A program made the position numbers and the translations under genes. A stretch of 63,941 nt of DNA, the filler included, from Reticulomyxa filosa (Eukaryota; Protista; Foraminifera): NCBI GenBank assembly GCA_000512085.1. It is 25 parts of 25 records of this genome, joined end to end, with 100 filler letters (N's around TTAATTAATTAA, not from the genome) between each part and the next. Parts side by side here need not be neighbours in the genome. Positions count along the whole stretch, not along the records: positions 1 to 10,940 come from ASPP01039867.1; positions 11,041 to 12,871 come from ASPP01009690.1; positions 12,972 to 17,094 come from ASPP01016459.1; positions 17,195 to 19,885 come from ASPP01015498.1; positions 19,986 to 23,984 come from ASPP01012418.1; positions 24,085 to 28,352 come from ASPP01016144.1; positions 28,453 to 30,579 come from ASPP01002856.1; positions 30,680 to 31,691 come from ASPP01029700.1; 17 more parts are not named here. One strand, 5' to 3'. The notes beneath the pieces are model-generated. The model worked only from the letters and a program-made list of their open reading frames with translations, was not told the DNA's origin and did not search any database. Shown here piece after piece: positions 6,620 to 49,114 of the stretch (positions are counted from its first letter, which is position 1; every line of letters begins with the position of its first letter).

Positions 6620-8481
6620 TTATTTTCTGTTGAAAATAATGTCATAATAAGTAGTATCTTGACTTTCTACACAATAAAATTCGCCATTATTGATGCTTCT
6701 AAGTTCTTTCTTAACATCTTGCAACATTTGATTCAACGAACAAAGTGATTTATACCTTTTTTTAATAACTTCGTTCATACTTTTGCTAAACAATGACAAA
6801 TCTGGCACTGAATGTCCTTTTGTAGTTGACCGAATAATGAAAAGATCATAATTTTAGGATATGCATCAGTATATAACTGCATTTTAAGTTGATCACATTT
6901 AGTACGACATGTATCAATGATAAAAATTTTTGGTAAATCCCGGAGTCCTATCATTTTATCACAAGCAAATGATATTATCCAATCAATTGATAATAGTTTC
7001 TTATCGCATGATACCACAAGCCCATCATATCCATGACCACAAACAATTAATATCAAACCATCATATTTATATTTATTGTCATGCAGGCTAAAATCTGAAA
7101 TTGCAGTTTGCAAAAATGATAACAAATCTGTTTTTTTTGTATTTTGTAATGGAATACGTACAAAAGTATAATTTAATTCTGTTTTAAATAATTCCATAAA
7201 ATTCTTGACGTCGTTTTCTATACTTGGAATATTGTCGTTTTGATTGCCATATTTACTTATTGCTATCATGAAAACAATTCCATTTTTTATTATTTTGATT
7301 GGTCCAACTCTTTTTTGGTTAAATGTACCGTCATTCTATTTAACAAATAAAAAAATTATTATTTTCTTTATGTTTATCATAACAACAATTATTCAAATTT
7401 AACTTCATTATCTTTTTTACTTTCATTTCATCTTCAATCGACCATTGATTAATTGTTGCAGTAATATGTTTTGCAACAACTTTTTTTCCATTATTTCCTC
7501 CAATAATATGTATATTCACTACATATTGCAGTAGCGTTGTATAATTGGTAAGGTAAAATATTTTCAGATTTCATCCATTTTCTTTTTTCTATTGAATACA
7601 CATGCACTGATCGTGAAACAAGCTTGTCACGCTTGCCCTTGCCATTCCATCCACCAAAAAACAAATCAAGCTATTGACGCAAACATATGCATATGAACAA
7701 AAATGAGCAATATCATCACAAACATTTAATTTACGATACAAAATTTTATTATTATCTTCATAATATTTTATTTTTACTACTGTACTTTTATGAAACAATA
7801 TCATTATAGTCTCATTTGTTTGTTAATTGTCCATTTCTTGTGAATTCACCGGCATTAATACAAAGCAATGAAATTGTATAAAATTACTAATTTGTAAAGT
7901 ATCATGTTGTATAAATTGAAATGTATTTAAATTAAACACGCTAATATTTTTTCATAAGTGATAAATAACAAATGATTTCTACTTCCACCAATTAATGCAC
8001 GCACTCATTTGTAATCATCTTCAGCTCTTCCAATTGGAATTTTATTGCCACAATTATCAGTGAATGGAACCCATTTGTTATATTTTATTGACTCTTTCAT
8101 TGCATTGTTATCGTTCCAAATACTTATATATTTCATCACCAATGTATGTTTACTAACTCCACCAAAAGACAGCAAAATAATAGTATTGTCGTCTTTATTT
8201 TCTACTAGCTTCATCACACAGTGTCCCTTTAATTGAATATTAACTGGATAATTGCATATATGTTTGTATTCTTGTTTGAGTGTATTGTAAGAATAACAAC
8301 CGTTTTGAAACGGACCTCCACAAATGATTATTTCGTATTTGTATGATATACATTGTGGTTGATAAAGCCTAAATGGCAAGTTGTTCAAATGTCGAAAAGT
8401 AGATGAATTAGCAAGTATAGTTGATTCAGTAATATCTTGCTTTTCTTCAGTTGATTTTGGCATTGTATTTACCTTTGCCAT
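6620..8481 (-). pseudogene. Kelch-repeat propeller fused to a caspase-like (peptidase C14) domain; disrupted
   Basis: Kelch blades (QCISYKYEIIICGG, GHCVMKL, LLSFGG, RALIGG, FGGWNG, IHIIGG) are joined by a phase-0 intron (7420-7336) in frame to NGIVFMIAISKY...YDGLILIVCGHG...PKIFIIDTCR (His/Cys dyad). A frameshifted p10-like tail follows (STTKGHSVPDLSLFS...YCVESQDT). TGA at 8005-8007, further stops and frameshifts. Confidence 0.85.
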
Positions 8482-10463
8482 GTTGTAAAGTTTGATAAAT
8501 AATTAAGTAAACTGACACCTTTTGACAAAAAAAAAAAAGATTAATTAATTGAAAATTTGAATGTATAGAATAATATAATTTTTGATGAATAAAAGAAAAA
8601 GATGTTTTTTTATTAATGGATTGCTTCAAAATTAAAATGAGAAAAATAAAGAGTAGTAGTACAAGATTGTAAAATCATCATCTTATAAAAAATGAAAAAA
8701 GCATTGTTAAACCCGAGACTAGCTTGAAAAATGTAACATAGTTAAGTTATTAACTACAAAGTCTATAGCCAATTCTTTCTTGGTTGTTATATAAAGATAT
8801 GAAGTTCTTCTTTCACTAGTAACAAAAAATACAAAGAGTTTCCTAGAATGTAGTTGAAGCATTGAAAATATCGTCACAAATGAAACAAGTCAAGTTGTTT
8901 TGGATGTTATTAAAAATGGGCCTAGGTGAGACTTGCACTCACATCTATGTGGTAAACACATCCATAATGATAAATCATATCTTGTTGTCGCAAGTCTCAT
9001 TCATCTTCCGTCGTTTTTTCATCAAAGCGAACTTTTTGTATTATTCGTGGATTCTGTGAGTACGCAAAATGACGCCCGTTCCATCTGATTATGCTGCGTC
9101 TCACTTTTAATTTTCTCAAATTTAATGTTACTTTGGTTGAGTAAACTTGATTTGATAATTTGAAGTTTTGTTTCCCGATGCAGCAAAGAAAACAATCATA
9201 ATTTTTCACATAATTACTTACTTTGATGGGAATAAATATATAATGTTTCATTTGTAGGATATTTGGACATTGAAGATATATTAAATTTAAAATTGCTATT
9301 TGTATGAAATTCATATTCACCAGGACAAGTAAACAAACAGGACCCTTTTTTTTTTTAATCAAAATAGATAATTTTTTATTCTAAAGGATTTTTTTTATTC
9401 AAAATCAAGATTTGAAAAATATGGAATTAATTTTTCAAGTTTTGTATATGAAAGAATAATTGCATAATGTAATGTTTTTGATGTTTTATTAATTATGGTT
9501 TTTACACATCGCATTTCTTTTTTTGAGATTATAATGTGGAAAAAATTCCAATATGAAATCCATACGTGAATTGACTGGCTGTGATCATTTCTAAGCACAA
9601 TGTTGATTTTTGTTTATCGTTTGGAGTTTAGATCTTTTTTTCTAAATTTATATAAGTTAACTTGGCCTCTTTTGCAAATAATTCCTTGATCTGAGCAAGC
9701 TTTTGTTCATATTTTGTTGAATTTTCAAATACGCTTTCATTTATTAACACACTTATTTCATTGTTCATTTGATTATGCAAAGTTCTCAGTGTCGATTTCG
9801 AAACAACAACTGGGTTTTATTTTTAAAAAGTTCAGAATAAACTGTAATATTAAAAAAAAGAAATTTGTTATTGTTTATTAGTTTGTTGATGAAGAACGTC
9901 GTTTTGTGTTTTTACCAACTGTTCGATCGAATTCTATAGCTTCCGACAACAACATTCCTTTTTGCGAATCTATAATTTGTGTTGACATGGTGTTCAATTG
10001 ATTTGCGTACAAATAAAAGTTATTCCCATATGTGTACAGTTGTTCAATATACTTTGCAAATTCTTTTAATAGTCGCACTTGTTGAATCAGTGAAATAAAA
10101 TCAATTAAATAATTCACTTTCAATTCTCCTTTTCCACTAATATCTAACTCACAACAACTTTTTATTTTTGTCATTTACATTTTTAAACTGGTCCATAACA
10201 CTATTTGTCCAACTCTCAAACATTTCATTACTTCCTTCAACCAATTCATTCCATACACGTGATATTGTTTCTTTTTTTGTTTTTTGTTGTTTCATTTGCC
10301 AGATATAATCAGATATTACACAAACAAAGATACTTGAAGTTTTGACGACTCATTCGCATTTCGAGATAGTTTGCTTATCACTTGTGTAACTTTCTTCAAG
10401 TTTCCCATTCATCGATGGCAAAACGTTATTTTTTCGACCTTTTTTGAGCAAAAAAAGTTCAAA

Positions 10464-10661
10464 ACGAGGAAGGGGCCCATAAATGAGCAAAAAAAATTGT
10501 ATCAATGACGAAACATAACAGTAGGAAAGTTGCTTGATTGTGGAGTGATCAAAAGTGGGGAGGCAATATTCTGTAATGAATCCAATTTTTTTTTTTGTTC
10601 GAATTTCACCAACGTACGCTTTGGTTTTTATTTTCTAACATTGTGAGGACCCCTTCTTCGT
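10464..10661. mobile_element. Candidate ~200-bp MITE with short terminal inverted repeats
   Basis: ACGAGGAAGGGGCCC (10464-10478) vs the reverse complement of 10647-10661, ACGAAGAAGGGGTCC: 13/15 match. PAQR similarity ends at the right boundary. Confidence 0.35.
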
Positions 10662-10895
10662 GGAATAGTACCGACGAATATTCCAAATATATCTGCGTTC
10701 AGACATTGCGTATGTTCTACACGCGAATTGCAATTGTTCATTAGTACGTGATAAATCACGCTTGCTGTGCTCATTAAGTAGTTGTATCCAATCTTTCCAC
10801 TTTGACCATGCACGTATAATTCTTTTGCTGCCAATGTCAAAGACAATATCAATGAAAACAAATGTGTCCAAATGTTCACGGACTCATTGTGAAAC
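10662..10895 (-). CDS. PAQR / hemolysin-III family membrane protein exon (truncated)
   Basis: FHNESVNIWTH motif after a TTAG acceptor, followed by S-x-x-Y-H (ASVIYH) and D-x-x-G-I (DIFGI), the PAQR signature motifs. Confidence 0.75.
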
Positions 10896-10940
10896 TAACA
10901 ACATGTTACATTTGTTATATTTGCAATTTCTAGTGGTATT

Positions 10941-11040
10941 NNNNNNNNNNNNNNNNNNNNNNNNNNNNNNNNNNNNNNNNNNNNTTAATTAATTAANNNN
11001 NNNNNNNNNNNNNNNNNNNNNNNNNNNNNNNNNNNNNNNN
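10941..11040. other. Artificial contig-concatenation linker (first of 24)
   Basis: 44 N + TTAATTAATTAA (stops in all six frames) + 44 N. Identical 100-nt linkers also start at 12872, 17095, 19886, 23985, 28353, 30580, 31692, 33550, 36692, 37804, 39498, 41564, 42857, 46161, 49115, 50355, 51633, 53019, 54264, 56684, 59487, 61542 and 62642. Confidence 0.99.
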
Positions 11041-11222
11041 CAGATTTTCAAAACTGATCAAGCATATATTAAAAAAAAAGAGCCAAATCAAGTTGAAAAG
11101 AAATAAACAACAATGCACAAAAATAGGCCCTTGCATAGAACCAAATAATAAAAAAAAGGATTTGTTTGTGATTTTTTTTTTTTTACTTATTTATTTTGCA
11201 TTTGTATAATTGGTCATATGAC

Positions 11223-11987
11223 TTAGAACCACCCGTCCCACCATTTCTTTTTATTTCCATAAATTCCAATAGCAACACCCAAAAACAGAGCAATGAACAC
11301 TTCGCCAACATGTTGAAGCGAATTGGTTTGGGAACCGAGTTTATTCGGTTTTGAATTGTCTACAGAAGGACGATGATTTTTGCCCATTTCTTTTTCTTCG
11401 ACCTGTTTTTCTTCCAATTTCAGTTCTTCGCATTTTCGTAACAACTCAGCAATGGATAGATCTGTCCATTTTTCCTTTTCCTCTTGTTCTACATCTGCCA
11501 CTTCGAAATACTTTAAAATGTCTTCTTTTATATCGTTTGTTAAAATAGTTTTAATTCCATTAATTTCTTGTTCTTTCAATTTTTGCGAATTTTCTTGATG
11601 TTTATGGTTTAATGTGTCGTACTTTTTTTTAAAATCTTCCAACTTTTTGTTCGTTTCTTCATTTCTTTTTTCGGCTTCCACGAGTTGGTGCTCATAGTTT
11701 TCTATCACTTGTGACAGCTCTTTTGTAAACTTCCCATCCAATGTCGTTGTATCATATGTGAACATCGTGTGCACGTTCTCGTGTTTCGTCCCGTACGCCA
11801 TGCTCTCTTCTTCCTCTTTGTCTCTCGTATCTGCTCTTGGCGACTTGTTTGTCGAGTGATCAAACTCGTCCTCATGTCCGTGCACTACAAACGTGCTACT
11901 TATCTGATGTTGGTGAGTATCTTCCACTGGCGATTTTGTGGCTCCTAATGCCAAGCTGTCATCAGTAATCGACATAGTTTCAGCCAT
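11223..11987 (-). CDS. Coiled-coil protein with C-terminal transmembrane tail anchor
   Basis: Intact 254-aa ORF with an E/K-rich heptad region, one hydrophobic segment (VFIALFLGVAIGIYG) and a short basic tail (NKKKWWDGWF). Confidence 0.8.
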   Translation of the reverse strand: MAETMSITDDSLALGATKSPVEDTHQHQISSTFVVHGHEDEFDHSTNKSPRADTRDKEEEESMAYGTKHENVHTMFTYDTTTLDGKFTKELSQVIENYEHQLVEAEKRNEETNKKLEDFKKKYDTLNHKHQENSQKLKEQEINGIKTILTNDIKEDILKYFEVADVEQEEKEKWTDLSIAELLRKCEELKLEEKQVEEKEMGKNHRPSVDNSKPNKLGSQTNSLQHVGEVFIALFLGVAIGIYGNKKKWWDGWF

Positions 11988-12259
11988 TTGATTATTAATA
12001 TTATTATTATTATTATCCTGTCAACTCCCGTCCCTTTCTTAAAAAGCAACACGAAAAGGAATGAAAAGAAGCACTTTTAAAACTTCCCAGGCTTTGAGAA
12101 AAAGAGAGAAGATATAAAATATATGTGTCATGCATATTATTCAAAGTTTTCTATTAAAGTTTTACGATAAACTTGTGGGAGCACGTGGAAGCACGCTGTT
12201 TCCCCTTACTTTTTTGTTTTCTTTCAAAATAATTTAGTGCACACAACGGGGAAAAAAAA

Positions 12260-24084: not shown

Positions 24085-27000
24085 TTTTTTTTTTTTTTGA
24101 TGCATTGTTAGAAAATGACATTATCAGAGATTTGGAGGCAGTCGAAAGTGCAATTCCAACAATTTTACAATTTGCAAAAGACTGGTATGGCGATTGCAAA
24201 GAATATGAAACAATATTGGTCATGTGTCAGCAAGTACAAATGCAAGTCCTTGGGGCTAAACATTTTGGAACACAAGTTATTGACCAAACGAAGCTGAATG
24301 CTGCACTACCTCATATTATGCGGTTATTAGAGAATGGATGGCTGAATGACAAGACCACAATACCAAGTGCTTTGGAGTATATGCTTGAAGGAGGGCATAT
24401 CGCTTTGGACAAACGTCCACACTTCGTTCGAGATGTATTAACAACGGTAAAAAATTTTGAAAGATTTGACACTCCAAATAAAAAGATAGTATATCGCTCT
24501 GTCATAACCGACATATTTCACAATGCACATGAACTGACTCAAAGTGTACAACATGCAACCGATAAGATTCGCTTGCAAATCCTTGAGGAATTGGTTTTGA
24601 ATCAGTGGAACGATGATACATTTGGATTGGACACGTATAAAGCAGTTCTATTAAATCGCGTATTGGAGCGCATTTATATGAATACGTTGAATGTCGAGTA
24701 TAATGGATCAAATCAAAACATTTCTAATATTTCAAGTATAAAGACAAGGTTGTTCCAATGTATTGACTCCATTTTGTCCATTACTAAAACACATTACATA
24801 TCAGAGATAGAGAATAGCCATGAGCTACATGCGATAATGCATCAAACATCTAAACTGTTAACACACTTTAACAAATCTAACAAATGTTATCAACGCAGTT
24901 TACATATATGGTTCCTGAAGCAGTTTTATGTTACCAAGGGTATGGGTTGGACACAAATGCTTTTCACAAATAAAGCGATCCGCACAAATTACTTAATCTT
25001 TGCCGATCCAAAAATGAGCGATGTGTTTTCCGTATTCAAATATCTCCCGCCCAATCTCCCCTCTACAGATCCCTTTATTGGCATTTACAGAGATACGTAT
25101 ACCAATTTCAAAGATAAACTTTTGCAGGGAATTAATTCAGGTAACGTGGATGTACAGTACAATGGAAATAAAAGTGATTTTATTCCGCTACTAAGCGCGG
25201 CCCTGTCGCTATCCAATCTCTATGGCATCGCTTTCAATGCAAATTTTAAAAGTTAAATATTGTAGATTAGGTTTTTTTTTCCAAGTTTATATACGTTGCA
25301 AAATTGTAACCAAAAAAAAAAAAAAAAAATAGATGTAAAAGATTACTTATTACAATGCAATGTTCTAAACTCTGATATTGAACAAAACTTTGTCAAGGTA
25401 TTGCTGAGTGAACAACTCCCTCCAACTGCCTCTGGTCTAAGGCTGACTTATGACAGTGACGCTTCTAATGCCTACATTCCAAGGCTGTGTTTCCATTTTC
25501 TGGGCACACTCCAAATTATGAATAGTTATGACTCTATTTTTTTATTTTTTTTTTGGAGGCAGCTTGTGCAATAATTTTATGTTTTTTTAAATGTATTTTT
25601 TAAAAATAGAAAACCCATTTCAAGTGTTGATTCTAAATCCTGAGATATATATGAATGGTCATCTCCCAGCAATGCCAGAAAATTTATTGATGAACGTGAT
25701 TCGCATAATGAAAAAAGAAAAAAGGAATGGAGACACCTTCACAGTTCGCTATTGTCCAAACATGCATCCATTCGTCATTAACCAATGTGGTCATCCAACG
25801 GAAAGAGTAATTTGCGCAGTTGATGGATGTGGCAAAGAAATTGGTGATACAACTCACAGAAGTCGGAATACAGGATTGAAGCAACTAGAAATACCCAAAG
25901 GATACATTTTGGATGGATCGGACGAAGAATTGTCAGTGGGTGACTCGTTTTGGAGGTATGAGGGTGACACTCAAATTAGGAGAATCACTGAAGTGACTTG
26001 CACATTAATACGTTTGTTGATTCATTTGGCGTTGCTGATCAGAAATGCAGCTGTTCCAGAAGGGTGCAAGAAGCTCCAAAAATTGTTACAAAAAACGGAT
26101 ACAGCAGAAGTGACCAAGTTTTTGCAGAAGCAAGCAATTGGTTATTTTCGATTGTTAGGAAAGATTACTTGCTTGAATGATGAACTTTTAGCTATGGCAT
26201 TACATCAACTACTGAATGCTTTACCACAAACATTCAATCAGCGGTATCCAAATGGATTGGATGGAACAGATCTTACCACCACATATAAATTTGAAACAAA
26301 GTTTGAAAAGTGGTATTGTGAATTTTTTAGACAAACCATACAATTCAATGAATTGAACAATCGCAGCAAAATTGCTGTAGATGAAGACAAAGCTTTGAAA
26401 GTGATCATCTCTGAAATTGAGGAAACAAAAGCAATTGACTCATTCTATCGCGAACAGTATGTCCCGCATTTGTTTTTAACCATCCATAAGGTATCATTTG
26501 ATGATTTAGCTAACAGATTTATGACAGAACCTTCTCTGAAAAATAGACATCCATTACTATATCACGTGATGTGTGCCAAGGATGAACTTTGGAGTGTGAA
26601 ATATTTGCCTGTTGTTGGACAATGGATGAAATATGTGTATTTCCACTATTCTCAGCAAATTTCACGACAGGAGTGTCAACGCAAAACCATCACTCAGGCG
26701 ATTGAAGAGTGGAAACAAAAAGGATATGGAAGTGAATTGGAGTCCTATCAACAATTATGGAGTGGCTTCAAAACATGTTGGAACACATTGGCGAACAGAA
26801 AGGTAAGAAACGACTGCAAGTCATTTGTTATCCCAAAATTGTATAACGATGATTCAATTAGTTTAGAGTTTTCCATTGCTCAAAACAATGAAAATGGCTT
26901 AATTCTTGTGAAGATCATTGAATTATTGCAAGATGCAAACAATGCATTTTTAGAAGATGTAATGATGGAGTCTAAAATGCATGCAAACAATGAAGAGAAA

Positions 27001-28028
27001 TATGATGCAAAGGATGAAGATTTCAATCAAATGCAAAAGGCTATGGGTAAGAATAAGTCTTTGTTTGATATTCACAGAAATGACATTGTATTTTTGGACA
27101 AAGATCAGGTAACTGAAATTATTCGGCAATGGAGTCTTCCCTCATTGGAATATGGAGTCATTAATCAAAATCGAAACAACATTTTTGGATTTAAATGCCA
27201 TTGAAAATGAAATAGCTTATCGATTTATTAAAAACCGTCAATTTTTGGAAATTAGTGTTCCTTTTTTTCAGTTTTCCAGCCAATTGAATATCAAAAATTG
27301 CGTGGCCATTGTCGAGAAAAACAACAGAGAATTGAAAACAGAGCCAATTGATCAACCATTATTGAGAACTTTCCTTTCTTCATTGAAATCTCAAAGTGAA
27401 ATACAAAGAGCTTTGGAAATCTTAAATGAAGTCATTGTCTTTGTTTCTCAAAATATCAAAATTATTGACTTGTTAAGTTGCAAACAAATTGCATCTATTT
27501 CTTAATATTTTTGGTGTTTTTTTTTTGCGTAGAGACAAGAAATTTGTGGAATTACTTGAACAAATGTCGTTCGATGAGAAAAGTTGTAAACTATTTATGG
27601 TGGATTTGGAAGAGCAACAAAAAAGTTTCATACTGTGCAGGCATATTTGCAACTTATGGAGACTTTTAGACAATACTGTGCAATTGGAATTTGTCAACAA
27701 GAGTACAATTGACAATTATGTCTTGGACATTTACAAACTACCTTTAATAGAACCATTAAAACAACAGCTGCAAGTAATGATACAAAAGACATCTCTGGGA
27801 ATAATAAAGGAAATTTTAGATGCTTGGAGAGAGGTTGTGCAAAGTGAGGGGCAAAGTATAAGAGATTTGAGCAAGAAAGAGCCCTTTAGCAACTGGTTAG
27901 ATAAGGTCATGTTTTATGACAATGAGTTAGAATTTTTCCCGAAAGAATTACTCACTTGGGAGTACTGTGCTAATGGTTATGCCTATCTCTATGAATTGTT
28001 CAACGCAACTCAGGTAATTGACATATAA
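24085..28028 (+). CDS. RNF213-like giant E3 ligase, C-terminal part with RZ-type zinc finger
   Basis: LPAMPE followed by CPNMHPFVINQCGHPTERVICAVDGCGKEIGDTTH (25753-25857), then GY...LIRLLIHLAL. Phase-consistent introns at 25252-25332, 25525-25609 and 27472-27532. One frameshift in a T-run near 27185. Confidence 0.8.
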
Positions 28029-28308
28029 ATTCACTCCACGTTTGTTTCTGTGATTGCTTAATCATTTTATTCCACAGCAAACAGATTGTTAGGTTTGTTA
28101 ATTCAGTACAAAGCCAGTCAATTAATTATGTCTTGAATCTGATCTTTTATTCTACTTAAAACTCCAAGAGTTGTTAGTGTTTAAAATTTAAAATTCATGA
28201 TTGAATTATGTCTATGTTGTTTTCAATATGAGACAAAGAATTTAACGAAAAAATATCATTTGTTCCAGATTAGTGTTGGAAAAAACTATATTATTTTGAA
28301 CAAAGCAC

Positions 28309-28352
28309 TACAGTATATTGCAAAAAAAACCGACATACCTAAATGGCACTAT
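28309..28352 (+). mobile_element. Tc1/mariner-like terminal inverted repeat (second copy, at contig break)
   Basis: TA|CAGTATATTGCAAAAAAAACCGACATACCTAAATGGCACTAT; flanks unrelated to the 17030 copy. Confidence 0.7.
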
Positions 28353-28739
28353 NNNNNNNNNNNNNNNNNNNNNNNNNNNNNNNNNNNNNNNNNNNNTTAA
28401 TTAATTAANNNNNNNNNNNNNNNNNNNNNNNNNNNNNNNNNNNNNNNNNNNNCGATTTTTCACGACGATCGTTAATGATGATATATATATATTTTTTTTC
28501 TCAGTTACCAGGAGTTTGCACCTTGGTACACTTAAAGCAACTGATGTCAATATACGTTGTAAGTTTAAAAGCACTTCCACTTCTTACAGTCACACGATGC
28601 TGAACCGACGAAACTCCCCAAAAATGAACTGCAACAAAAAACGTTGCCAAAGGGTAACAAAAAAGTTTAAAGTCCAGCCACAATATCACAAAATCCAACT
28701 ACTATAAAAAAATTTTATATCACTATAAAAAATTTTTAC

Positions 28740-30470
28740 TTGTCACAATTCAAGATGATGAAGTTGGGAAATAGCATTGACTGTGTCATAGGCAGCCTGG
28801 TTCATTACACTAAAAATTCGACACATTGCAATTCTTTGTATCCTTTCCAATCGTCTCTTATGAATGTCTGCTGCACCATTCCAAAATGCCGATGCATACT
28901 CGAAACTAGGACGAATGATGGTCTTGTATAATAGACTATACGTGGATAGACTTGGTCTGGCACCTTTATATAAACATAAGTATGTCAAATATCCAAGCTT
29001 GGAATAAGTCATGTGAGAATCAATAAACAATTCAAGATACTTTACATGATCACCTGCAATGTCAATTGCATCTTTGGGAATTTTCTCTTATCTGAATGTA
29101 ATGCATTACGTCTTATCAGCTGCAAGTAACATCTTCCATTTATTCACCAAATAGATACTTCATCCAGATTTTGCTGCAATAATTCATTCATTTCATCAAT
29201 ATCATATGTACATATCAATGTCCAAAGTGCCACGTCATCAGCATTGAATGTGTTGATGGATGACTGTTGGTAAATCATTAATGTACAATAGGAACAATAT
29301 TGGTGATAAAGCAGATCCTTGATGAACTCTAGTATTAATCTCTTTGTGATGATTCTTTCCATCAATTTACCAACACTTAATAACAATGCGATCGGCTTAT
29401 GGTGACTATGATCTCCATCAGGCTTGGGAATATGCACAATATTGCCTTCTTCCATGCAATAGGTATATCCCATTCGGAAACTCCATCCAAATAGGAATAC
29501 CAATAATTTAATCATTGCATTGCCACCATTCTTTAGCATTTGATTGTGGATATTACCTGGACCTTGCGCTTTGTACGGTGACAAATGTCTCATCGCTTAA
29601 TAACTTCTTCTTTTGTAATATCACTCTGATGGATATCACTTAGACCAATGAAATTATCATCCAATTCCAATGGTTTTGATATTGCAATTTTACATTTAAT
29701 GTAATCTTCGACAATATCATAATGCTTTTCATATTGGTGTTTAATGCCTTGAATTGTGTGAATAAATTTCTTGTATTCCCTTCATACAGCGAATTAATGC
29801 TGTTTACCATATGTTGATGCTTTTCCAATTGCAATTTCTTTCGCAATTGCTTGGCAGCTCTCTTATATAGCATCAAATTTCTTGATTTTCTTTGTTTATG
29901 AAATCAGTTCTTTAATTTTTAAACTATCTTTCGTAATAGACTTAAACTGTCACTCCACCACATTTTATTGCCTTTCCAAATCATTCTGATACAAATTGTC
30001 GCTTTTCCAGCTCCAACACATTTGGTCCAAGATTTGACTGCTTTGTCCAAAGAATCAATAGATTTCTTCCAATTGTCAATATTTCTTTTCAATCTCAATC
30101 TAAATTATTCTCATTTGTTACTCATCAGATTCCAAGTCTCAATCTTTTATCGTTCAATTCGTAATGATGACCACGTGGTTTTGATATTCAGCGTTATTTA
30201 TTGGATGTCCTTTACATAATGAGCATTTTTGAAATTTTATATTCTTCTGCTATGATTTATGATTCCTTCTGCACAACACTTATCGAAAATTTTATACTTT
30301 GCTTTATTGAATCCAATGGTAATTATCTATTTTTAATATGTCCTTTGTATATCTTCTGCTTTGGCGAATGTAACGTTCAATACTGGCATAGATTGTTTCA
30401 AATAATAAATTTTCTTAAGAAATTCCTAAAGAAATTTTTTCCAAAATCTTGTATACTGATATTCCAAAAC
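28740..30470 (-). mobile_element. Decayed non-LTR retrotransposon (LINE) reverse transcriptase region
   Basis: KAQGPGNIHNQMLK, IPKP...KPIALLLSVGKLMERII, GVHQGSALSPILFLLYINDL (alternate frame), ADDVALW, VKYL and LYKTIIRPSFEYAS. Many stops and frameshifts. Confidence 0.92.
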
Positions 30471-30679
30471 TAACTTCAAATCTTGAATAATCTTGAAGTA
30501 TCTTGAACACCTGAATCTCTTTCAAAAAAACAGCTTTTGCAGTAAGTTGAAAATGATTATGAATGGAGCTATTTTTTTTNNNNNNNNNNNNNNNNNNNNN
30601 NNNNNNNNNNNNNNNNNNNNNNNTTAATTAATTAANNNNNNNNNNNNNNNNNNNNNNNNNNNNNNNNNNNNNNNNNNNN

Positions 30680-31013
30680 ACGTTTGTGGGATATTCGATC
30701 TGGTCAACAAATTCAAGTGTTTAATGGACATACAAATACTGTATGGTCTGTTGAATATTCACCATTTGTAATGAAGAATAGTATTGGTAATTCAAATGTG
30801 ATATGTTCTGGATCAAATGATAATACAATTCGTTTTTGGGATATTCGATCAAATAAGAATCAATTGTATGTGATTAGAGGAGATGATGAAGATAATGGAA
30901 TATCTTGTCTTAAATTTATTGTATTGAAAAAGAAAGATAATACAAAGAATGTCACATATGATTTGAATTTGTGTTATGGTTCAAGAAATGGTCCAATTCG
31001 TATTTGGGGATAG
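30680..31013 (+). CDS. WD40-repeat protein, C-terminal end
   Basis: LWDIRSGQQIQVFNGHTNTVWSVEYSP...ICSGSNDNTIRFWDIR...GPIRIWG*. Confidence 0.92.
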
Positions 31014-32149
31014 TTTACTGTTTTGTCAAATAATAAATGAAAGTGTTTTTTTTTGAAAAGTTTGATCAAAAGAAAAGTAAAGTGACATTAAACTTGTTTG
31101 ATTGAATGCAAGCATTGAAAGATGTGTTCTGTCTTACTTTGTTGTTTCAAAAATCTAAAAGCTGCGATTGTCTTTGCAGTAATTTATGATATATATCTGC
31201 AATCATTCAATAAGCACACAAAAGTATGTGGCATATGAATATACTTCATTTGCTCGAACATGCTCCACTATGTGAGCGAATAACAGTATCAACATTCAGC
31301 AAACACGTATTGAAATCAAGTATGTTTTCATTTTGTACATTCGTGCAAGGAATTGATGCAATGCCACTTTTTAGACAATTAGAATTGCAACAAGTGTTTC
31401 TTCTATCATTCGTTTAGCTTATTTACAGAGTGATATTATCAAATCAAGTCAATTAAATCCCATTGTGCAATAACAAAAATGGAAAAAATTGATAGATGAT
31501 CCAAAGCAAAATGTTAAAAAAAATTGAAATACAATTGCAAAATTCTATTTGGAGATATTGAATTGAGATTTGATACAATGGATGACGAAATTATTGGTGA
31601 ATATATTAGAAGCACATGATATATTTACAAGAATTCATAAAAATCTTAAAAAGTGTGTTTGAACAAAGAAAATCTACATACTTTACGTGCGNNNNNNNNN
31701 NNNNNNNNNNNNNNNNNNNNNNNNNNNNNNNNNNNTTAATTAATTAANNNNNNNNNNNNNNNNNNNNNNNNNNNNNNNNNNNNNNNNNNNNTCTTCATCC
31801 ACATTGTCTCTGTGTGAACATGGACACACACACACCTTGCTTCCCGTGATGTGTCCATATTTCTTTAATTGATACATTGTCATCGTTGTTTCACTTTCAT
31901 ACAATCCATTGCTACTTGCCATATTGCTACTATCGATCTACGTTTTTTCTTTTTTTTTTCTTCTATTCTTCCCTTCAAATTTAAAGCAAAAACATTTCAC
32001 ATGCCCACATTGTTTTGATGGAGATATATTACAACAACTAAAGATATGACACAAACAACATACAATCACACTAACCTTCATCCCTCACTTTTGATTGATT
32101 TTCTTTATTTTCTTGTCATTGTCCATGCTTTTTTTCGCATTCTATTGTT

Positions 32150-33400
32150 CTGGATGTTGTACATGGACAACATAAGTCCATTCTCTGTTGTGGCGTGCAA
32201 TCCTGCCATTATTTAAATCCAAAGGAAATTTTTCTGCGGAATATGCATCCACTCCAATATCTCCATCATTCCATATAATCATTGCAATCAACCCGGGGTA
32301 AACCTTGTCTTCTCGTCACTGTCCAAAATTGTACAGATTGATTTGCAAATTTACTACAAAACAATCCAATATTGAGATGACTTTTCTCTTGGCACACATT
32401 GCAATTTCGAGTATGTGTAATTGCACAGTTGCAATACATGCTGCTGTCGAGAGACATAGATTCACATTGCCTCTTGCTATTTTCAGTGTAACTGGCAAAG
32501 TAATTTTAACTTGCTCCCGATATACCAATTGCCAATTTGTTGAAGTCAGATACCCGATTCATTTGTTCGCCGGACGTCATCGCACGCAATTGTATCCCAA
32601 ACAGTTTTCCAACGCTGCAACGACAACGATGACAACAATATCGACAAATTGGAAATTGTGTTGTAAAATACGTTGGTTAATCGCGTTCAATACTTTTCAC
32701 TACACCATTCAAATCTTGCAGAGTTCAATATTTGCGCAATCAAAGATATGTCACTTGTGGATACGTGATACTGGCGTGCTTTGGACAAATTGTTTTTCAA
32801 TATCTAAAACATTTCACTTCAGTCAATGTTCCATCTGGATAAAATCTTTTGGATTGCTTTGTTATGTCTTATTGTCCAAATATACTGCCATAACGCATCA
32901 CTTGCTTTTTTGAACAGATCAACAATAACAGCGATTACCACCGTTGCGCTTGTGGATAAACTCTCTACTCGATATGTGGGTTTTGTGAATTGTGTTGTCA
33001 TAGCATACAGCCCCATCATTGGTTTGAATGAATCGTCTGTGCGCATTGCATCGTGTTACGTGAGAAATAGTGGTCCATTGACTACCATTGCCGTCATTCC
33101 GGCCATATTTGCAATACAGAGCAACGATTGTATTTTGGACTTCAACTTCCACATGTCCAATATCGCCATGTAAAGGAGATCTTTATATCATTACGTGGAG
33201 GATTGCTTGTTTGGAATGAAATTGATTTGCATCCTCTCCATATGTGACAACGATTGTCCCACTTTTATCTTGGTACGACGCATTCGAGGCAGCGTTCAAA
33301 TATGCAAACACATCCCGAGGCTGCGACAATTCAAACCCCAGATTACAAATACCGATGGGTGTATTTGTTTGATTGAGTGCAACCTTTTTTTTTTATACGT
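32150..33400 (-). pseudogene. Decayed PPR-like helical-repeat gene
   Basis: VEVEVQNTIVALYCKYG resembles the PPR motif (V.NALI.MY.KCG). Surrounding frames are broken by stops. Confidence 0.35.
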
Positions 33401-33649
33401 GCTCGAGCTTGCTGATACGTTTTGACACTGCTTGATTGTACGAGTCGGGCTGGCGTTCGAGGATAGATAAGGCCAAACTTTTGGACAATATCGTACATGT
33501 TTATGCTTTCAACACGTATGTACGTGATAGAGCTGCAATTTGCATAAACNNNNNNNNNNNNNNNNNNNNNNNNNNNNNNNNNNNNNNNNNNNNTTAATTA
33601 ATTAANNNNNNNNNNNNNNNNNNNNNNNNNNNNNNNNNNNNNNNNNNNN

Positions 33650-36600
33650 CCCCCCCACCAAAAAAAAGGAGTTCAACTCTTTTAATGTCATTTGGAAAGA
33701 CAAAAGTAACGAAACACACAAAGAGCCATCGAACCCATATTCAATGACTTTGATACAAGGAATACAATATTTCAAAGATAAATTACAAATCAGAGAACAT
33801 TTCATATATGGCAGAGATGAGTTAATATGCTTTGAATGCGAGTTTGATAAATGCAAACCACCACTTGCTTCAAAGATAGATGACAAAGATGTATTATTGC
33901 ATGACACTTACAAACATCTTTCCCATTATCCAATTATTCAAGTTTATTGGGAAATAAAAGCATGTTTTATGATACCCTACAAACGCACAATCTGCGTACA
34001 AAGAAATAATTTACCAAACAGTGTTCCATTTCGAGGTGCTTTTATCCTATCCAATCAAAGACCTAACTTCAATCCATTACCATATGAATGTGATTTTCAC
34101 AAACTCAAAATTATTCAGGATACAATATATGCAAAAATAATAAGGAACAATGCGTTGCAGAAATTATTACACGAAGTGATAAAGAATGATTATCTGATTG
34201 ATTTAATTCCTAAAAAACTGCGATCGATAGGCAAAGAAGTAATCGAGCAACGAATCGATTACGATGAAAATGATCAAAATGGCGAGTTACTATTAAATGA
34301 TAAAATATTAACAATATTAAATGAATTGAGGACATTGTATCATAATGACATTCACAAACAAATGGGATATCCACTTCAATTACATCATATTTGTGCTATT
34401 TTATTGCATTGTGGTAAATCATGTAATATTCAATTCAATAATGACCAAGTCCGATGTAGACATCATATATGGCCTTATTTGGATAATTATTTGCAAGAGG
34501 CTATAAGGATATTGCATTTACATGAAAGAAGAGAAGAACGAAGATTGACTTGTATTGTGGATTGAAAGGAGTAAGATTGGGGAATATTGAAAAAGAAATC
34601 AAAGGAGGATATTTTATAAGTAACCTAAACACTTCTGATTATATTCAAGTCGCACAAATGTATAGAAGTGATCAAGGATGTATTTTACATTTTCATCCTT
34701 CCATGAGACGAGCAAGTGGAATACGGAGTTGTGATGTATCATGGATATCTTCATTCAAACATGAACGTGAAATTTTGTTTGCAAGATCTGTCACAAATTT
34801 GATTGATGATGATGATGATGAGAAAACATATAAAGAATTGTGTTCATGGAATGCAAAAGTAGAGGATGAAGATAAATATACGCAAACGATATTATTGACA
34901 TGGACAAGATATGATCAATGTTTACAACAGGCTTTGAACATTAATGCGATATTATATTGTCCTATTGATTTTAATATTATTTATGTTGCACTTGAATACT
35001 GTAATGGAGAAGATGTAAATAAAACAGTTGAATTGTTATCTGAATTTGAAGAATGGAAATTGAGAGATAATAACAAACAAAGATATGATGAAGAAAAGCA
35101 TAATTTTACAGAAAGGCGTTGCTATAGTCATAATGTCAATCTATTTTATATGTTTCTTGTCGAAAAAGGATTTCTAAACAAACAGAATGCCATGGAAAAA
35201 TTAATTTTATCTACAATTAATGATGGTTTACCTTTTGCTGAAAAAGATAACATACCTTTCTTATTTTTACCTTCTTTACCTGTTCCACTTTATCAAAGCC
35301 AATGCGTGGTACATAATTATGAAATATTGCTTTTTGGTGACTATTGTAATCATGACTGTTATTCATATCATATGATCGAGCGTAAATACAAACGCATTTG
35401 TTCTTATCCGAGTAATGTCAAATTGAATGGACATTGTGTGATAAAGCTTATACCTAATAATAATGATTCACATGATGTCACTTTGTTATCTTTTGGTGGA
35501 TACCCAAAACATACATTAGTGATGAAATACGAAAGTGTTTGGAATGATATAGAAAATGCCTACAATGAACACAAAGAAGATTATATCAATAAGTGGATGC
35601 CTTTACGCGATAATGATGATATGCCAATTTCTATTGGCAGAGATGAAGATGATTATTTAGGATTGCGTGCAGTGATTAGTGGCAGTAATAATCATTTGTT
35701 ATTTATTACATATTTTCCAAATGATATTAGTGTATTCAATTTAAATACATTTCAATATGAGAAACATAGTACTTTACCTACAAATGATAATGATAGAATG
35801 AGATATCATTGTTTTGTATTGCGAGAATCACCAAAAAAAATAAAAATCAAAATATACATGAAATGATGTTATTTCACAAAAATACTGGCTTGTCCATTGA
35901 ATATGATGAAAATTGCAACATTTTCAATTTTATAATATACGAGTTTGCACAACTATGAGATCATTTTGCTGTTATGGATTTGTTTATGTCAATGATTCTA
36001 TTTTATTTTTTGGTGGATATGACGGAATAAAAAATGCTTCAAGAGAAGTTTATCGATATTCAATTGTAGAAGATCAATGGGTAAAGTTTGAATCAATTCT
36101 ACCCATGCCATTGAATTGTTGTATTGCAACATTGAGTGGGGATAATAAATTTGTGCATGTTATTGGTGGTTATAATGAGCATGAGACTCTTTCTACACAT
36201 ATGAAAACAATATTGCAAAAATGGACAAGTGAAATAGAAATAGAAAAGGAATGGATGAAGAAAGAAGAGGAAGATAGACATAACGAAGAAATAGAAAAAG
36301 GAGAAAAAGAAAAAAAAGAAATTAAAATGATGAACGAAGAATTAAGCATGATGGGACAACAACAGCTCAATATACAGAAATTAAAAGTTAAAAATATGTG
36401 TATTATTCAATTATTTTCTTTGTCCACTATAATAACATAAATAAATGAAAAGAGAACAAAAGAAATATCAATAATAATGAATTATTGGATTCGTTCATAT
36501 TCAGTTAAAATAAAATGGATTGACGAATGTAATGCTGTCATTGCAAGATATATTCTGGTATGTTAGAATTTTTTTGTTTAGCAATAATATTGAGAAAAAA

Positions 36601-36691
36601 AAAAAAAAAAAGTTAATACATTTGTAATAGAGAAAATACTATCGACCTTTAACGATTCTTCAAAGACATCCTTCTTATGTACGCAATGTAA
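33650..36691 (+). CDS. ADP-ribosyltransferase (ART)-like domain + Kelch propeller + coiled coil + HWIR linker + start of WD40; both ends truncated, three homopolymer frameshifts
   Basis: ART motifs LYCGL, ISNLNTSD and SWISSFKHEREILF (ExE). Kelch blades from LPSLPVPLYQSQCV to VHVIGGY. Spliced tail EISIIMNYWIRSY...VIARYIL | RKYYRPLTILQRHPSYVRNV. Single-base frameshifts at about 34537, 35835 and 35922. Confidence 0.82.
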
Positions 36692-36895: not shown

Positions 36896-37790
36896 GTCAT
36901 TGTTGTCATTACCATTGTGATTGGACTCTTTTGTGAGCTTCGCTTCTTCCTTGTTTTGGCTTTCACTGTCAACGGGCACAACTGCCTCTTGCTGTTCGTG
37001 TTTATCTTCATGTCCATGTGTGTCGTATTTGTGCTCATGTTTGTGTCGATGTGGATATTTATGTTCATGTCTATATCCGCGCCCACGATGTCCGCGGTCG
37101 TGTCTATGTTCCTGTTCATGTTCATGTTCATGTCCATGTTCATGTTCACGTTCACGTTCATGTTCATGCCCATGTCCATGTGAAGGGTAGTTTGGCATGT
37201 TTTGCTGCACTGGATGCAATCTCTCCGTTTCCTTGTCGATTCTCTCTTGAATTGCGTTGCTTAGATGGTAGTGTCCAAATCGACGTGCTATTGCCGCTGC
37301 GTCCTCGCCTTGATATTTCGCCAACAAGTCCAACTTGTCGTGTTGAAGAAACTCTTTCCATAGTTCCACGTCATTGCATGCTTGTGCCTTTTTTTTTTTT
37401 TTGTTACGTTATAATTTTTCGTAAAAAAAAAAAAAAAAAAAAAAACAAGCTACACATATATACATATATATATATTATATACTTATATATATATGTATAT
37501 AATATTAACCTAAGAGATGCAATGCATTCCTTCCAACAATCGAGTCTTGTATAGTCCTTTGGTTCAAATAATTGCTATTGGTTTTTTTCAGGTTCAAAAA
37601 ATAAGAGACTATCTTCTTGTGATAGTTCCTGCAACTCCATTGAAATGCATTCATCCCTTCCTCCATGTCCATTGTCACCACGCGGAAAGGGTCCCCTCCT
37701 TGTTCAATGTACTGCTTCACTTCGTCCAAATACTCATCTCCACCTCCTTCGTTCACTGTGTTTCTGCAGATCTTTAACAGTCTAATTTCC
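36792..37790 (-). CDS. Ankyrin-repeat protein with His/Glu-rich and poly-Asn tail (fragment)
   Basis: GMNAFQWSCRNYHKKIVSYFL, GRNALHLL and GEDAAAIARRFGHYHL; intron about 37508-37388; HEHEREREHEHGHEHE tract. Confidence 0.8.
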
Positions 37791-39734
37791 CACACACACA
37801 CAANNNNNNNNNNNNNNNNNNNNNNNNNNNNNNNNNNNNNNNNNNNNTTAATTAATTAANNNNNNNNNNNNNNNNNNNNNNNNNNNNNNNNNNNNNNNNN
37901 NNNATTATGATCTAGTATGCAGCTATGGCCAAATAATGGAGTACGTTACGTGGTTGAAAATTCAACAAAGACTTAGCATTGATCAGCACAGGGAGATACC
38001 ACAGAGACAGAGATAAAACAGCGTTGGGTCGCATTCACTCATGCTATCCGTGACTTTACCAAAGGACAAAGTAAACGCCAATACAAACAAGGCGTACCAA
38101 AAAAAGAAAGAGTCTTTGGATTATGTGGTCCGAGTATGAATCAAAGTTGAAAATGAAGTCGGAACCCAAGTCCGAAGACGGAGTACTCAACGCGATGATT
38201 GGCAGAGCGAACGAAGATTAACATTGACGAGTATTTGGAACAGTAAAGGTTTCATGATTGACCCAACCATGGTGGAGAGTATTAATACCTTTCAATTGAG
38301 TCGATCAAAAGGAAAAGAGTTAATATGTGTTCTGCTGAAACACGAATTAAACGAAAACTCTTTTGTATTGAATGACCATCAATAGTCAGTCCTGTGTTTT
38401 TTTGCTTGGAATTGGATTCATTGGAGCGCTATTGACAAATGCTTGGCTTCAGAATTTGTGGTATTGCTTTGAAGAGATACATCATTTTTTCCAGTGAATA
38501 TGAACACGTACAAATATTGATAACAAAACAAGCAAAGACAAAGCTCGAATAGTGACAAGCTTGTCCAAGAATGGAATCAATATCAAAGATACATTGCCAA
38601 CAAAATTGTCTGGAACTTGCTGTCAAATATAAAATGACAGACTACGAAAGAATTTTGGCGCTGGTCAACAATGCCTTTAGCAACTTGTATGGGTCTCGTA
38701 TGCTCGTTTTAAAAAAATACAAAAAATGCATTGTCGAAACCTGATATCATTGAATTGGACAAGCAGACAAAGCGCATATGCTTGAGTTTGGACTGCCGTT
38801 ACATTATCTTGGAAGAAGCAGAAGTAAATACCGCAACCTCCAAAAACAAAAAACCAAACATATTGACAAATTGCCGATCGTTGGAAAAATTAGTGTCAAT
38901 GACTTGAGTTATGTGTATCGATTTGCTGATGACTTCTCATTGTGTTTGTTGTCACTCAAATGCCGGAAGAGTCCATTCATTGGGCTCGTGCTTTGAGTAA
39001 GCAGACCGATGCACAAAGATTAAAATCCGGATCCAAACATTGTCACAAGCACAGCAGTCACACCAAAAGCGATTTTGGCAAATATACCACAACGGACTGT
39101 TTGGGTCATAAATTAATGATATTCGTTTGGTTTCACGATCATTCTTTTTTTTTTTCTTTGTCGTTTTGATGCACACGGTTGATTTTTTCCTCGTTTGTTT
39201 GTTGTTTTTCATGCTTAACACATCTTTGAACGGTTTGTTTGTTGAAGCAAAGTTGTTCAAAACATTTTTTGATAGAACTCGAATGTGTTTCATGCATTTT
39301 TCATTCCTTATTTTAAAGAAAATATTAAGAATTCGCACTAATACAAATTGTTTTTTTTTCCCACTAAATCTTAAGTATTTTCAAAAAGTAAAGGTTAGCG
39401 AAAGAGAAGTGTGACAATATTATCTTAGTTCAAAAAAAGGAGCAACACAAGTCCTCTTTATAGTTTGTCAAGTAGTTCATTTACAAACAAATTATTTNNN
39501 NNNNNNNNNNNNNNNNNNNNNNNNNNNNNNNNNNNNNNNNNTTAATTAATTAANNNNNNNNNNNNNNNNNNNNNNNNNNNNNNNNNNNNNNNNNNNNGTA
39601 CTTTTTTTTTTAATAAAAAAAAAGTTTGAGGGCAAGCTAAAGTGCAGCAAATTTACGATACTTCGTGCAGTTTGGAATGCATTTATACGTGTAACAACAC
39701 CTGAACTAGACTGTGAGGATCGTGGACAGCGTGT

Positions 39735-46846: not shown

Positions 46847-47015
46847 TGTCAAGTTATAATATGAAGAATTTCCTTACTTTGACCGAATTACCGGAAGCAT
46901 TATCAGTTTCACAATGTATTTCATTAAATAATGAAATTCTTATCTGTAGTGGTGCTAAAATTACTAAATGTTACTCATGTCATACTCTGAAAAAAGTTGC
47001 CTGGCAAAGGAGCTA
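46847..47015 (+). pseudogene. Truncated Kelch-family first-blade relic
   Basis: MSSYNMKNFLTLTELPEALSVSQCISLNNEILICSGAKITKCYSCHTLK, homologous to the blade-1 sequences at about 8400 and 35270. Confidence 0.7.
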
Positions 47016-47706: not shown

Positions 47707-49030
47707 ATGGCTTCAGCTCAAATATCTTCTTCGTCACATACATTGACAACATCATTATTTGATGGTACAACATATACTTGGGAGGTCGGACAACCAGTTT
47801 TAATCTATTCACCAATCAGTCCAAACTGGCGCCGAGGTGAGTTGCTGTCATGGACAAGCAAGAACAATTTGCAAGTGGCACACGCGGAGGAGAGTGGACT
47901 GACGGTTCGAACAATAAATCCGGACAACATAGAAATTCGGCCAATCCGCCAAGTTTAGTTTGATGTTTGTGCACAGTTGTGGAGTTGGCTGCAATGCAGC
48001 ATACATAAGTGTAACGAAGTGAGTCCACTGTACAAAGTTCCTCCCCCCCCTAATTTTTTTTTTTGGTAAAAAAAAAAAAAAAATTATAAAGGCACACGTT
48101 ATAATTGGCAAAGCGGATCAATAGTGGAATTGTACAGCAGCAGCGACAACTCATGGAACAAAGCACGTGTGGAAAAAGTAGTGGACAAAGGGAAAGAAGG
48201 AAACGAGAAGAAAGAATCGGAAAGTGGCAAGCACCCGTTGATACCAATCACAAAGAGTGGACTGTTTCAGCCAAAGCAAGGAATATACTTTGTGTTAACG
48301 GTCGAACTCGAAAGCGGGGGTTCCATCGTGTGCGAAGTGCCGCAATTGAGTAGTCAGCTGCGACATCGTCTGGTGTTGATCGAAAACTGGTCGAAAGTCA
48401 AGACGTCGTCGTCGTCGCAGGCAAAGACGACGACCGTGGAGACATTGAAGCACGATCGAGAAGGACAAGGGATAGATGCAGCGGCATTTGTATTACGTAA
48501 TGCATCTTTGAAGCGAAATGCCAATTCATTGGCGACATTAGTCCGTCATTGGATACGTACATGTGAGTGTATTTCATCATCATCATCATCATCGTCATCA
48601 TCATCGTCATCATCGTCATCATCATCGTCATCATCGTCTTCATCATCGTTATCGAAGATGATGCAAAATATGCCAATAGAACTGATCGCCATCATCATTC
48701 AATACCACAATTATGCCGATGCCATCTTGCTATACACTGACGAAATGAAGATCCTGGACACGGTCCATCCCGATGCCGACAAAGACGTCGTGTTGACCAC
48801 CAAATATCCGACCTCGCAATTCCATCATCGCTGCAGCTATCCCCAAAACCTGATGAACGATGGCACGCTCTACTTTGTTGGAGGCTTTGATCAAAAGCTT
48901 GGTCAGGCCGTCACCGATGTCTACTCCTTTGACGTTGCCACCGCCACTTTCACTTCTTTGCCTAGTCTCAGTCACAAACGATACGATAGCAAATCCTTGT
49001 TATTGGATGACAATTACTTGGTCACTTTGG
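47707..49030 (+). CDS. Two Tudor/SH3-like barrels + HWIR/PxELI linker + Kelch repeats, 3' truncated
   Basis: YTWEVGQPVLIYSPISPNWRRGEL and YNWQSGSIVELYSSSDNSWNKARV are duplicated units. LVRHWIR-(poly-Ser)-MPIELIAIIIQY follows, then Kelch LYFVGG...VYSFDV...LPSLSHKR. Confidence 0.7.
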
Positions 49031-49082
49031 GTATTACGTATACACACATTATATTTATGTATATAAATATGTGTATACGACT

Positions 49083-49114
<32 letters not shown>

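Follow-up and report, generated by a model that had tools for sequence, protein, structure and literature searches.

A large Kelch family in the foraminiferan Reticulomyxa filosa with a predicted hypervariable binding face and a minority of caspase and ADP-ribosyltransferase fusions: a candidate recognition repertoire

Kelch substrate receptors of cullin ligases include plant F-box-Kelch proteins. In the Podospora genes het-d and het-e, positive selection acts on a small number of surface residues in each WD repeat (PMC1805685). In Reticulomyxa filosa, caspase-like proteins are already known, mainly as outgroups of trees, and the accessible text of the two studies concerned makes no mention of Kelch (PMC5982838, PMC10959488). 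Here we describe a Kelch family represented in a 63,941-nucleotide stretch of R. filosa DNA (assembly GCA_000512085.1; hereafter the window), which consists of 25 short AT-rich contigs joined by artificial N44-TTAATTAATTAA-N44 spacers and holds one Kelch locus on contig 1 (locus A) and one on contig 10 (locus B). Databases label single domains of the family's members, and a literature search by title and abstract opening found no description of the family, whose expansion may be described in the genome paper or in reviews of ADP-ribosyltransferase (ART) evolution. Because nearly all copies have a different predicted pocket and some members, a minority, are fused to effectors, the best explanation, to which we give an even chance, is a fast-diversifying recognition repertoire with an effector-fused minority, likely serving defence against microbes.

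The family is large, in agreement with an earlier note on this DNA, and lineage-restricted: a profile search returns 324 clusters at E<1e-30, its 1246 clusters at 1e-3 probably including ordinary Kelch proteins, and every named match is from R. filosa. Of the 168 long and 255 near-length candidates from word-seeded searches, 16 and 170 respectively were accepted, giving 186 matches; the 136 Kelch family matches listed are all from R. filosa, as are 20 of the 20 proteins looked up among the 131 that the profile search added. Additionally, one of 572 candidate stretches, the metagenome contig L001, carries an intact open reading frame (ORF; 58-1158, 37.5% GC) combining Kelch with the family's conserved BOX motif (see below); it is 39% identical to the best family match and may come from another organism.

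The propeller comprises six four-stranded blades with the Kelch GG/Y/W motifs; Pfam assigns Kelch to as many as 77 of 80 members, and the propeller of a modelled Kelch-caspase protein (P0042) matches known Kelch structures with a Z score of 26. Column entropies were calculated for 226 aligned propellers, columns filled to less than 85% being dropped; the top and bottom faces were assigned from model strands together with general Kelch geometry, and the pocket set was fixed once the entropies had been seen. Three residues before strand A, each of the six blades has a hypervariable position (3.5-3.9 bits) with conserved scaffold residues next to it, and the first position of the B-C loop is also hypervariable in most blades. 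Columns reaching 3.3 bits account for 17 of 88 on the top face versus 0 of 41 in the bottom loops (p 0.0009), and none of the dropped bottom columns lies above 3.16 bits. When 16 close pairs, all disjoint, are compared, differences at the 12 pocket sites number 85 of 170, versus 95 of 611 for bottom loops and 347 of 2218 for strands. Y, W, F, R and H make up 38.6% of pocket residues versus 11.6% of those in variable bottom loops, and 225 pocket signatures occur among the 226 proteins. On the modelled fold, these data show diversification of the predicted top-face binding specificity, as distinct from positive selection. The sensor-like repertoire proposed in the earlier note thus finds support in a predicted binding face that is hypervariable across all six blades; the repeat sensor with a diversified surface that characterizes NLR-type receptors is present here at the protein level, on the predicted top face. 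A further proposition, that Kelch evolves faster than its caspase, was unsupported (mean identity 66.5% versus 69.6% across 10 pairs).

Foraminiferan networks fuse with self. The repertoire could serve self/non-self recognition where reticulopodial networks meet and fuse, with the caspase killing the contact zone in the manner of fungal het genes, a logic that would resemble that of Podospora het-d/het-e (PMC1805685). Under such a role one would expect a few loci with polymorphic alleles rather than paralogues by the hundred, and we regard it as very unlikely.

Partner domains were catalogued in a sample of 266 Kelch proteins that was ranked and length-limited and includes partial gene models. 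Kelch occurs without a recognized partner in 141 of them and with only the BOX motif in 57, together 198 effector-less proteins, and is followed by a WD40 tail in 35. A caspase is present in 12, usually behind a PB1-like domain, and the caspase linker only in 5; TPR repeats occur in 5, two of these with a degenerate caspase-like domain. Eight carry an ART cassette and one the head of this cassette without the ART; a U-box and an unconfirmed His-type ART are found in one protein each. Several distinct fusions underlie the swapped effectors and domain shuffling envisaged in the earlier note, and the recognized non-repeat partners are enzymes or ubiquitin-system modules; however, most members are effector-less and repeated swapping is not statistically supported.

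Some of these proteins deserve separate mention. The U-box protein, P0305, is a direct E3-ligase fusion (Kelch, coiled coil, U-box). In P0199, the C-terminal domain (residues ~780-960) displays His/Tyr/Glu motifs that by eye, with no database confirmation, are like those of NEURL4/PARP-like ARTs; if it is such an ART, it would be a second, unrelated class. P0013, P0015, P0122, P0162, P0209 and P0222 have in common a domain of ~200 residues and no recognized family that precedes TPR arrays, and this domain occurs in both Kelch-TPR and ART-TPR proteins. Finally, the members of two pairs, P0087/P0173 and P0112/P0187, have near-adjacent locus tags and equal-size contigs, so that Kelch genes and ART cassettes perhaps lie side by side; alternatively, one fusion gene was split by annotation.

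A 228-row tree was drawn from the 266 proteins and the two window copies, with 38 of the 266 (short or tandem-propeller) left out. ART-Kelch proteins form one clade (8 rows, Shimodaira-Hasegawa-like approximate likelihood ratio test 100; 5 rows and 100/98 in the other tree) nested among WD40-tailed Kelch proteins. Caspase and WD40 tails are interspersed on the trees (7 and 11 changes), and 0% of 200 bootstrap replicates unite them in a single clade, the bootstrap not having converged. Although the trees scatter the tails, approximately unbiased (AU) tests do not reject single origins, and repeated effector swapping was not retained. Since ART-Kelch is one clade and the AU tests do not reject single origins, the evidence for swapping amounts to at least five distinct fusions rather than a continual process.

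The features of the window that belong to the family are as follows.

7421-8481, minus strand: six-bladed Kelch propeller of locus A, pseudogene-like, with an ATG at 8481.
7336-7420, minus strand (7420-7336): GT-AG intron of 85 bp whose removal would put Kelch and caspase in one reading frame.
6620-7335, minus strand: caspase domain of locus A with His and Cys motifs (Pfam Peptidase_C14, E 1.6e-12).
33651-33989, plus strand: beta-grasp (ubiquitin-like) module predicted in the ART cassette of locus B.
34146-34930, plus strand: ADP-ribosyltransferase fold of the R-S-E type, motifs YCG / NTS / ERE.
34940-35251, plus strand: tentative CUE/UBA-like helical module.
35258-36227, plus strand: six-bladed Kelch propeller of locus B.
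36453-36557, plus strand: BOX exon, a conserved motif of ~38 residues, with flanking in-frame GT-AG introns (36387-36452 and 36558-36630).
36631-36691, plus strand: lead-in to a first WD40 repeat, cut by the contig end (resemblance to P0004 by eye).
46870-46995, plus strand: relic of blade 1 of the Kelch family on contig 16 (family comparison).

The earlier note had aligned the Kelch regions near 7430-8400 (-) and 35270-36230 (+), and their homology is borne out: 68 of 133 residues are identical (51%, E 8e-44), rising to 128 of 276 (E 7e-87) when breaks are bridged by X, with 69% DNA identity across 540 bp. The relic it claimed at 46847 corresponds to the blade 1 match (17 of 42 identical, E 2e-7), and the two loci are indeed unlinked, since they lie on separate contigs joined by artificial spacers. 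The caspase C-terminal to one Kelch is likewise confirmed, by the Pfam match and the in-frame intron. The C-terminal WD40 claimed for contig 10 survives only as a 20-residue lead-in: the stretch 35910-36230 is Kelch blades 5-6 by Pfam, the contig ends before any full WD40, and the WD40 hidden Markov model (HMM) gives no score to the lead-in. Full WD40 tails are present in the close paralogues P0002, P0004 and P0005, and the gene model P0018 is 100% identical to contig 10 across the searched region.

Locus A is probably a real pseudogene, because it has two in-frame stops (8007-8005 and 7825-7823) and four frame changes, and lacks the helical and PB1-like linker that intact Kelch-caspases carry. 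Three of the frame changes lie in Kelch (near 7952, 7665 and 7515) and the fourth (near 6855) between the large- and small-subunit parts of the caspase; one of the four is outside a homopolymer run. Locus B reads in the order beta-grasp, ART fold, CUE-like, Kelch, charged helix, BOX exon and WD40 lead-in, and the PUB and PH-like modules of a full cassette would fall beyond the contig start. Its three frame changes (near 34540 in an A run, 35830 and 35925) are all within homopolymer runs, and its splice sites keep the frame; the gene may therefore be intact in vivo.

All three window copies (locus A, locus B and the contig 16 relic) are broken as they stand. This would be expected if the family were neutral birth-and-death debris of a duplication-prone genome, with fusions created where a deletion or read-through joined neighbours within mixed clusters, and with some of the fusions being gene-model artefacts. 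The frequent erosion of fused ARTs, the possible adjacency of ART cassettes and Kelch genes (P0087/P0173, P0112/P0187) and the duplication excess reported for this lineage (PMC11069148) point in the same direction. However, an invariant scaffold beside a hypervariable W/R/Y-rich pocket is unlike AT-drift loops, conservation of the caspase dyads and of the STS/ExE motifs is widespread, many contigs show the same fusion junctions, and the locus B splice sites are in frame. Additionally, the Nei-Gojobori (NG86) dN/dS between the two window Kelch copies is 0.19, a rough value from 147 codons with dS near saturation, which indicates, roughly, past purifying selection. We consider neutral debris, an alternative that the earlier note had raised, to be rather unlikely.

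The Kelch-caspase fusions are represented by P0042. In its model (predicted local distance difference test, pLDDT, 86.5; predicted template modelling score, pTM, 0.59) the propeller is followed by one long helix, then a helical bundle, a beta-grasp and finally a caspase fold with Z ~21 to caspases. The modelled beta-grasp resembles PB1, a lead drawn from its alignment to PB1 parts in 6 of 10 structure-atlas rows (TM 0.64-0.68, under the service's naming bar); Pfam finds no PB1 match, and the acidic (OPCA) motif is only partial by eye. Both catalytic motifs (His and Cys) are kept in 7 of the 12 Kelch-caspases and also at locus A, whereas both TPR-fused caspase-like domains have eroded active sites. 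The closest solved sequences are animal caspases. The Arg/Gln/Arg pocket (S1) by which animal-type C14A caspases accommodate Asp was not found: Asp replaces the Gln of QACRG, K, P, E or I stand near the first Arg, and the third pocket position was assigned to the residue that we take to be its equivalent. Asp specificity is doubtful, given the Asp at the QACRG Gln position and the variable Arg179 equivalent, and by analogy with metacaspase motifs the pocket may prefer Arg/Lys.

The ART cassette, which in full copies reads PUB, PH-like, beta-grasp, ART and CUE-like, is a family of its own: 48 of its 56 matches have no repeat partner, 6 are joined to Kelch, 1 to TPR and 1 to WD40. In the model of the P0170 cassette (pLDDT 83, pTM 0.85), the ART fold matches ART2.2 (Z 13.7, root-mean-square deviation 3.3, 196 residues aligned) and, by Foldseek, ExoS (E 8e-5), and further parts match PH domains (Z ~10) and the PUB domain of PNGase (Z 9.3). 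The predicted beta-grasp is read from secondary structure only, and the CUE-like call, for the module that ends the stand-alone cassette, comes from 1 of 46 Pfam matches together with UniRef names. Pfam recognizes an ART in 9 of 46 cassette members at E<=1 (best 2.9e-06) and gives no ART match to the window copy, so that the ART placed by the earlier note N-terminal to the locus B Kelch stands through the fold of a family member. STS is present in 37 of 48 ARTs and ExE in 35 of 48, the window copy having NTS/ERE, and a nearby RR is retained in 46 of 48. The cassette has no match by sequence in PDB or NCBIfam, was found in 0 of 22 candidate stretches from viral contigs, and no literature description of the PUB/PH-like/beta-grasp/ART/CUE-like arrangement was found.

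The BOX motif follows Kelch and, where there is a WD40 tail, precedes it; at least 57 Kelch-only and most WD40-tailed proteins carry it. Many Kelch-BOX proteins share the same few residues after BOX at the C-terminus, and the Kelch-BOX form thus looks complete. This placement fits a role of the family as expanded ubiquitin-ligase substrate receptors for host proteins, with BOX serving as a cullin-adaptor box and the fusions to caspase and ART being side branches of proteostasis. In line with this, the best structural matches include KLHDC10, KLHDC3 and LZTR1, and PUB, beta-grasp, CUE-like and U-box partners occur. However, BOX had no Pfam or PDB sequence match to an F-box, SOCS box, VHL box or LisH in what are weak tests, and near-unique pockets across hundreds of paralogues in one lineage would fit changing targets better than fixed host substrates. 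We hold this alternative to be unlikely, and it would overlap with a microbe-directed recognition repertoire if the substrates were foreign. BTB, F-box and SOCS box were not detected in the family.

The NACHT domain reported by the earlier note on window contigs is absent from a Pfam scan of 129 ORFs and from a P-loop scan. Family members likewise have no Pfam match to NACHT/NB-ARC, their module maps leave no room for one in fused proteins, and none was found in P0002, whose source name mentions NACHT. The NLR-type analogy hence holds for the diversified repeat sensor but not for the central NACHT/STAND NTPase, and without a STAND NTPase found in the family the link to NLRs is only an analogy.

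Under the preferred reading, that of a diversified recognition repertoire, each propeller would bind its own ligand on the top face and the effector modules of the fused minority would act on ligand binding. Kelch-caspases might cluster through the PB1-like beta-grasp, allowing the caspase to dimerise and activate. The ART cassette would be held at membranes by its PH-like module and at p97/ubiquitin by the PUB, beta-grasp and CUE-like modules; mostly stand-alone, it would have joined the Kelch-WD40 lineage apparently once. Eroded Kelch-fused ARTs and TPR-fused caspase-like domains could be decoys or scaffolds, effector-less Kelch-BOX proteins could signal in trans or via ubiquitin ligases, and copies would turn over by birth and death. 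In its boldest form, which strikes us as doubtful, this would be an intracellular innate immune system of a free-living rhizarian without STAND ATPases or death folds. Hundreds of Kelch receptors would have antibody-like variable pockets, a caspase not specific for Asp would be switched on by PB1-type polymerisation in the manner of an inflammasome, and the ART cassette, coupled to p97/ubiquitin and non-canonical in its active site, would act as second effector or decoy.

Several observations weigh against a recognition repertoire coupled to effectors. Catalytic-type partners occur in only ~22 of 266 members (~8%). At the R site of the ART, a column picked by analogy with the YRG motif, Arg is present in 0 of 48 sequences and Cys in 41. 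STS and ExE are complete together in 1 of 6 fully aligned Kelch-fused ARTs versus 33 of 42 other aligned ARTs, counts that drop 8 of 56 gapped rows, including the Kelch-fused P0019, which has STS and ERE; by these column counts, the subclade of the window copy is near-intact and other Kelch-fused ARTs are eroded. AU tests do not reject single origins (caspase p 0.195, WD40 0.062, cassette 0.207, ART side 0.152). Any adaptor family whose members take different substrates should have variable pockets, pocket sites that differ by 50% do not establish dN/dS > 1, and the pocket set was chosen with the entropies in view. Moreover, the gene models come from a fragmented draft, the public version of which has 50,809 scaffolds and an N50 of 3.6 kb (PMC13746701), and the excess of duplications is genome-wide (PMC11069148).

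The window also contains other sequence. Contig 6 (24085-28352, +) encodes the C-terminal part of an RNF213-like protein, a ubiquitin/defence-type module whose RZ-type zinc finger is found by Pfam (E 1.7e-10), and WD40 pieces akin to the family's WD40 tails lie on three contigs (40-288, -; 30681-30860, +; 50822-51632, -), with a frameshift in the copy on contig 18; both had been noticed before on these unlinked contigs. Contig 16 has a Kelch ORF (48070-49104, +; Pfam Kelch_1) in which, by eye, a poly-Ser run splits a BOX-like motif; the family HMM gives it no score, and it was treated as belonging to another Kelch family. Contig 7 (28453-30579, -) carries what by eye is a frameshifted non-LTR retrotransposon reverse transcriptase-like sequence, with no Pfam match at 1e-3, and contig 4 (17196-19176, +) a BSD-domain ORF and a UBA-like ORF. 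An HlyIII/PAQR-like sequence (10631-10894, -), an ankyrin sequence (37508-37801, -) and a kinesin fragment (60250-60639, +) were also recognized.

Little is known of immunity in protists beyond a handful of lineages, and the Kelch family offers concrete, testable candidates: the diversified Kelch pocket, the Kelch-(PB1-like)-caspase architecture and the PUB/PH-like/beta-grasp/ART/CUE-like cassette. If the preferred reading is true, these would represent an independent route to sensor-effector coupling and give a context to the animal-like caspases of R. filosa; should the family prove to be debris or an expansion of ubiquitin adaptors, it simply adds to the known lineage-specific repeat families.

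Fungal HNWD/NLR-like receptors share with this family multi-copy repeat propellers with few hypervariable positions per repeat, pseudogenes and cell-death-type effectors (PMC1805685), whereas the sensor of R. filosa is Kelch, no NACHT/STAND switch was found and most members are effector-less. The repertoire would work like these fungal receptors and like the expanded E3-coupled receptors presented in another report (PMC3417536), without being an NLR. The R-S-E mono-ARTs (ART2.2, Tre1, HopU1, ExoS) and expanded rotifer ARTs have the same fold, and most R. filosa members keep the STS and ExE motifs, but the Arg site is Cys or another residue, never Arg, and the domain is embedded in a compact cassette; an atlas lead points to eukaryotic ART clusters at 0.86. 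Animal initiator caspases (caspase-8/9) share the caspase fold (Z ~21) and the His-Cys dyad, but the R. filosa prodomain is Kelch plus helices plus a PB1-like module, not a death fold, and Asp replaces the QACRG Gln. Kelch cullin receptors (KLHDC2/3/10, KLHL/Keap1, LZTR1) have the same six-blade fold (Z 23-26) and lineage-specific expansion, whereas in R. filosa no BTB, F-box or SOCS box was detected and Kelch is fused directly to caspase and ART. For Keap1, the position of each residue within the blade was partly checked against KLHL12. On that placement, the variable positions of the R. filosa propellers map to the ligand-binding top-face positions of Keap1 (residues from PMC12266349).

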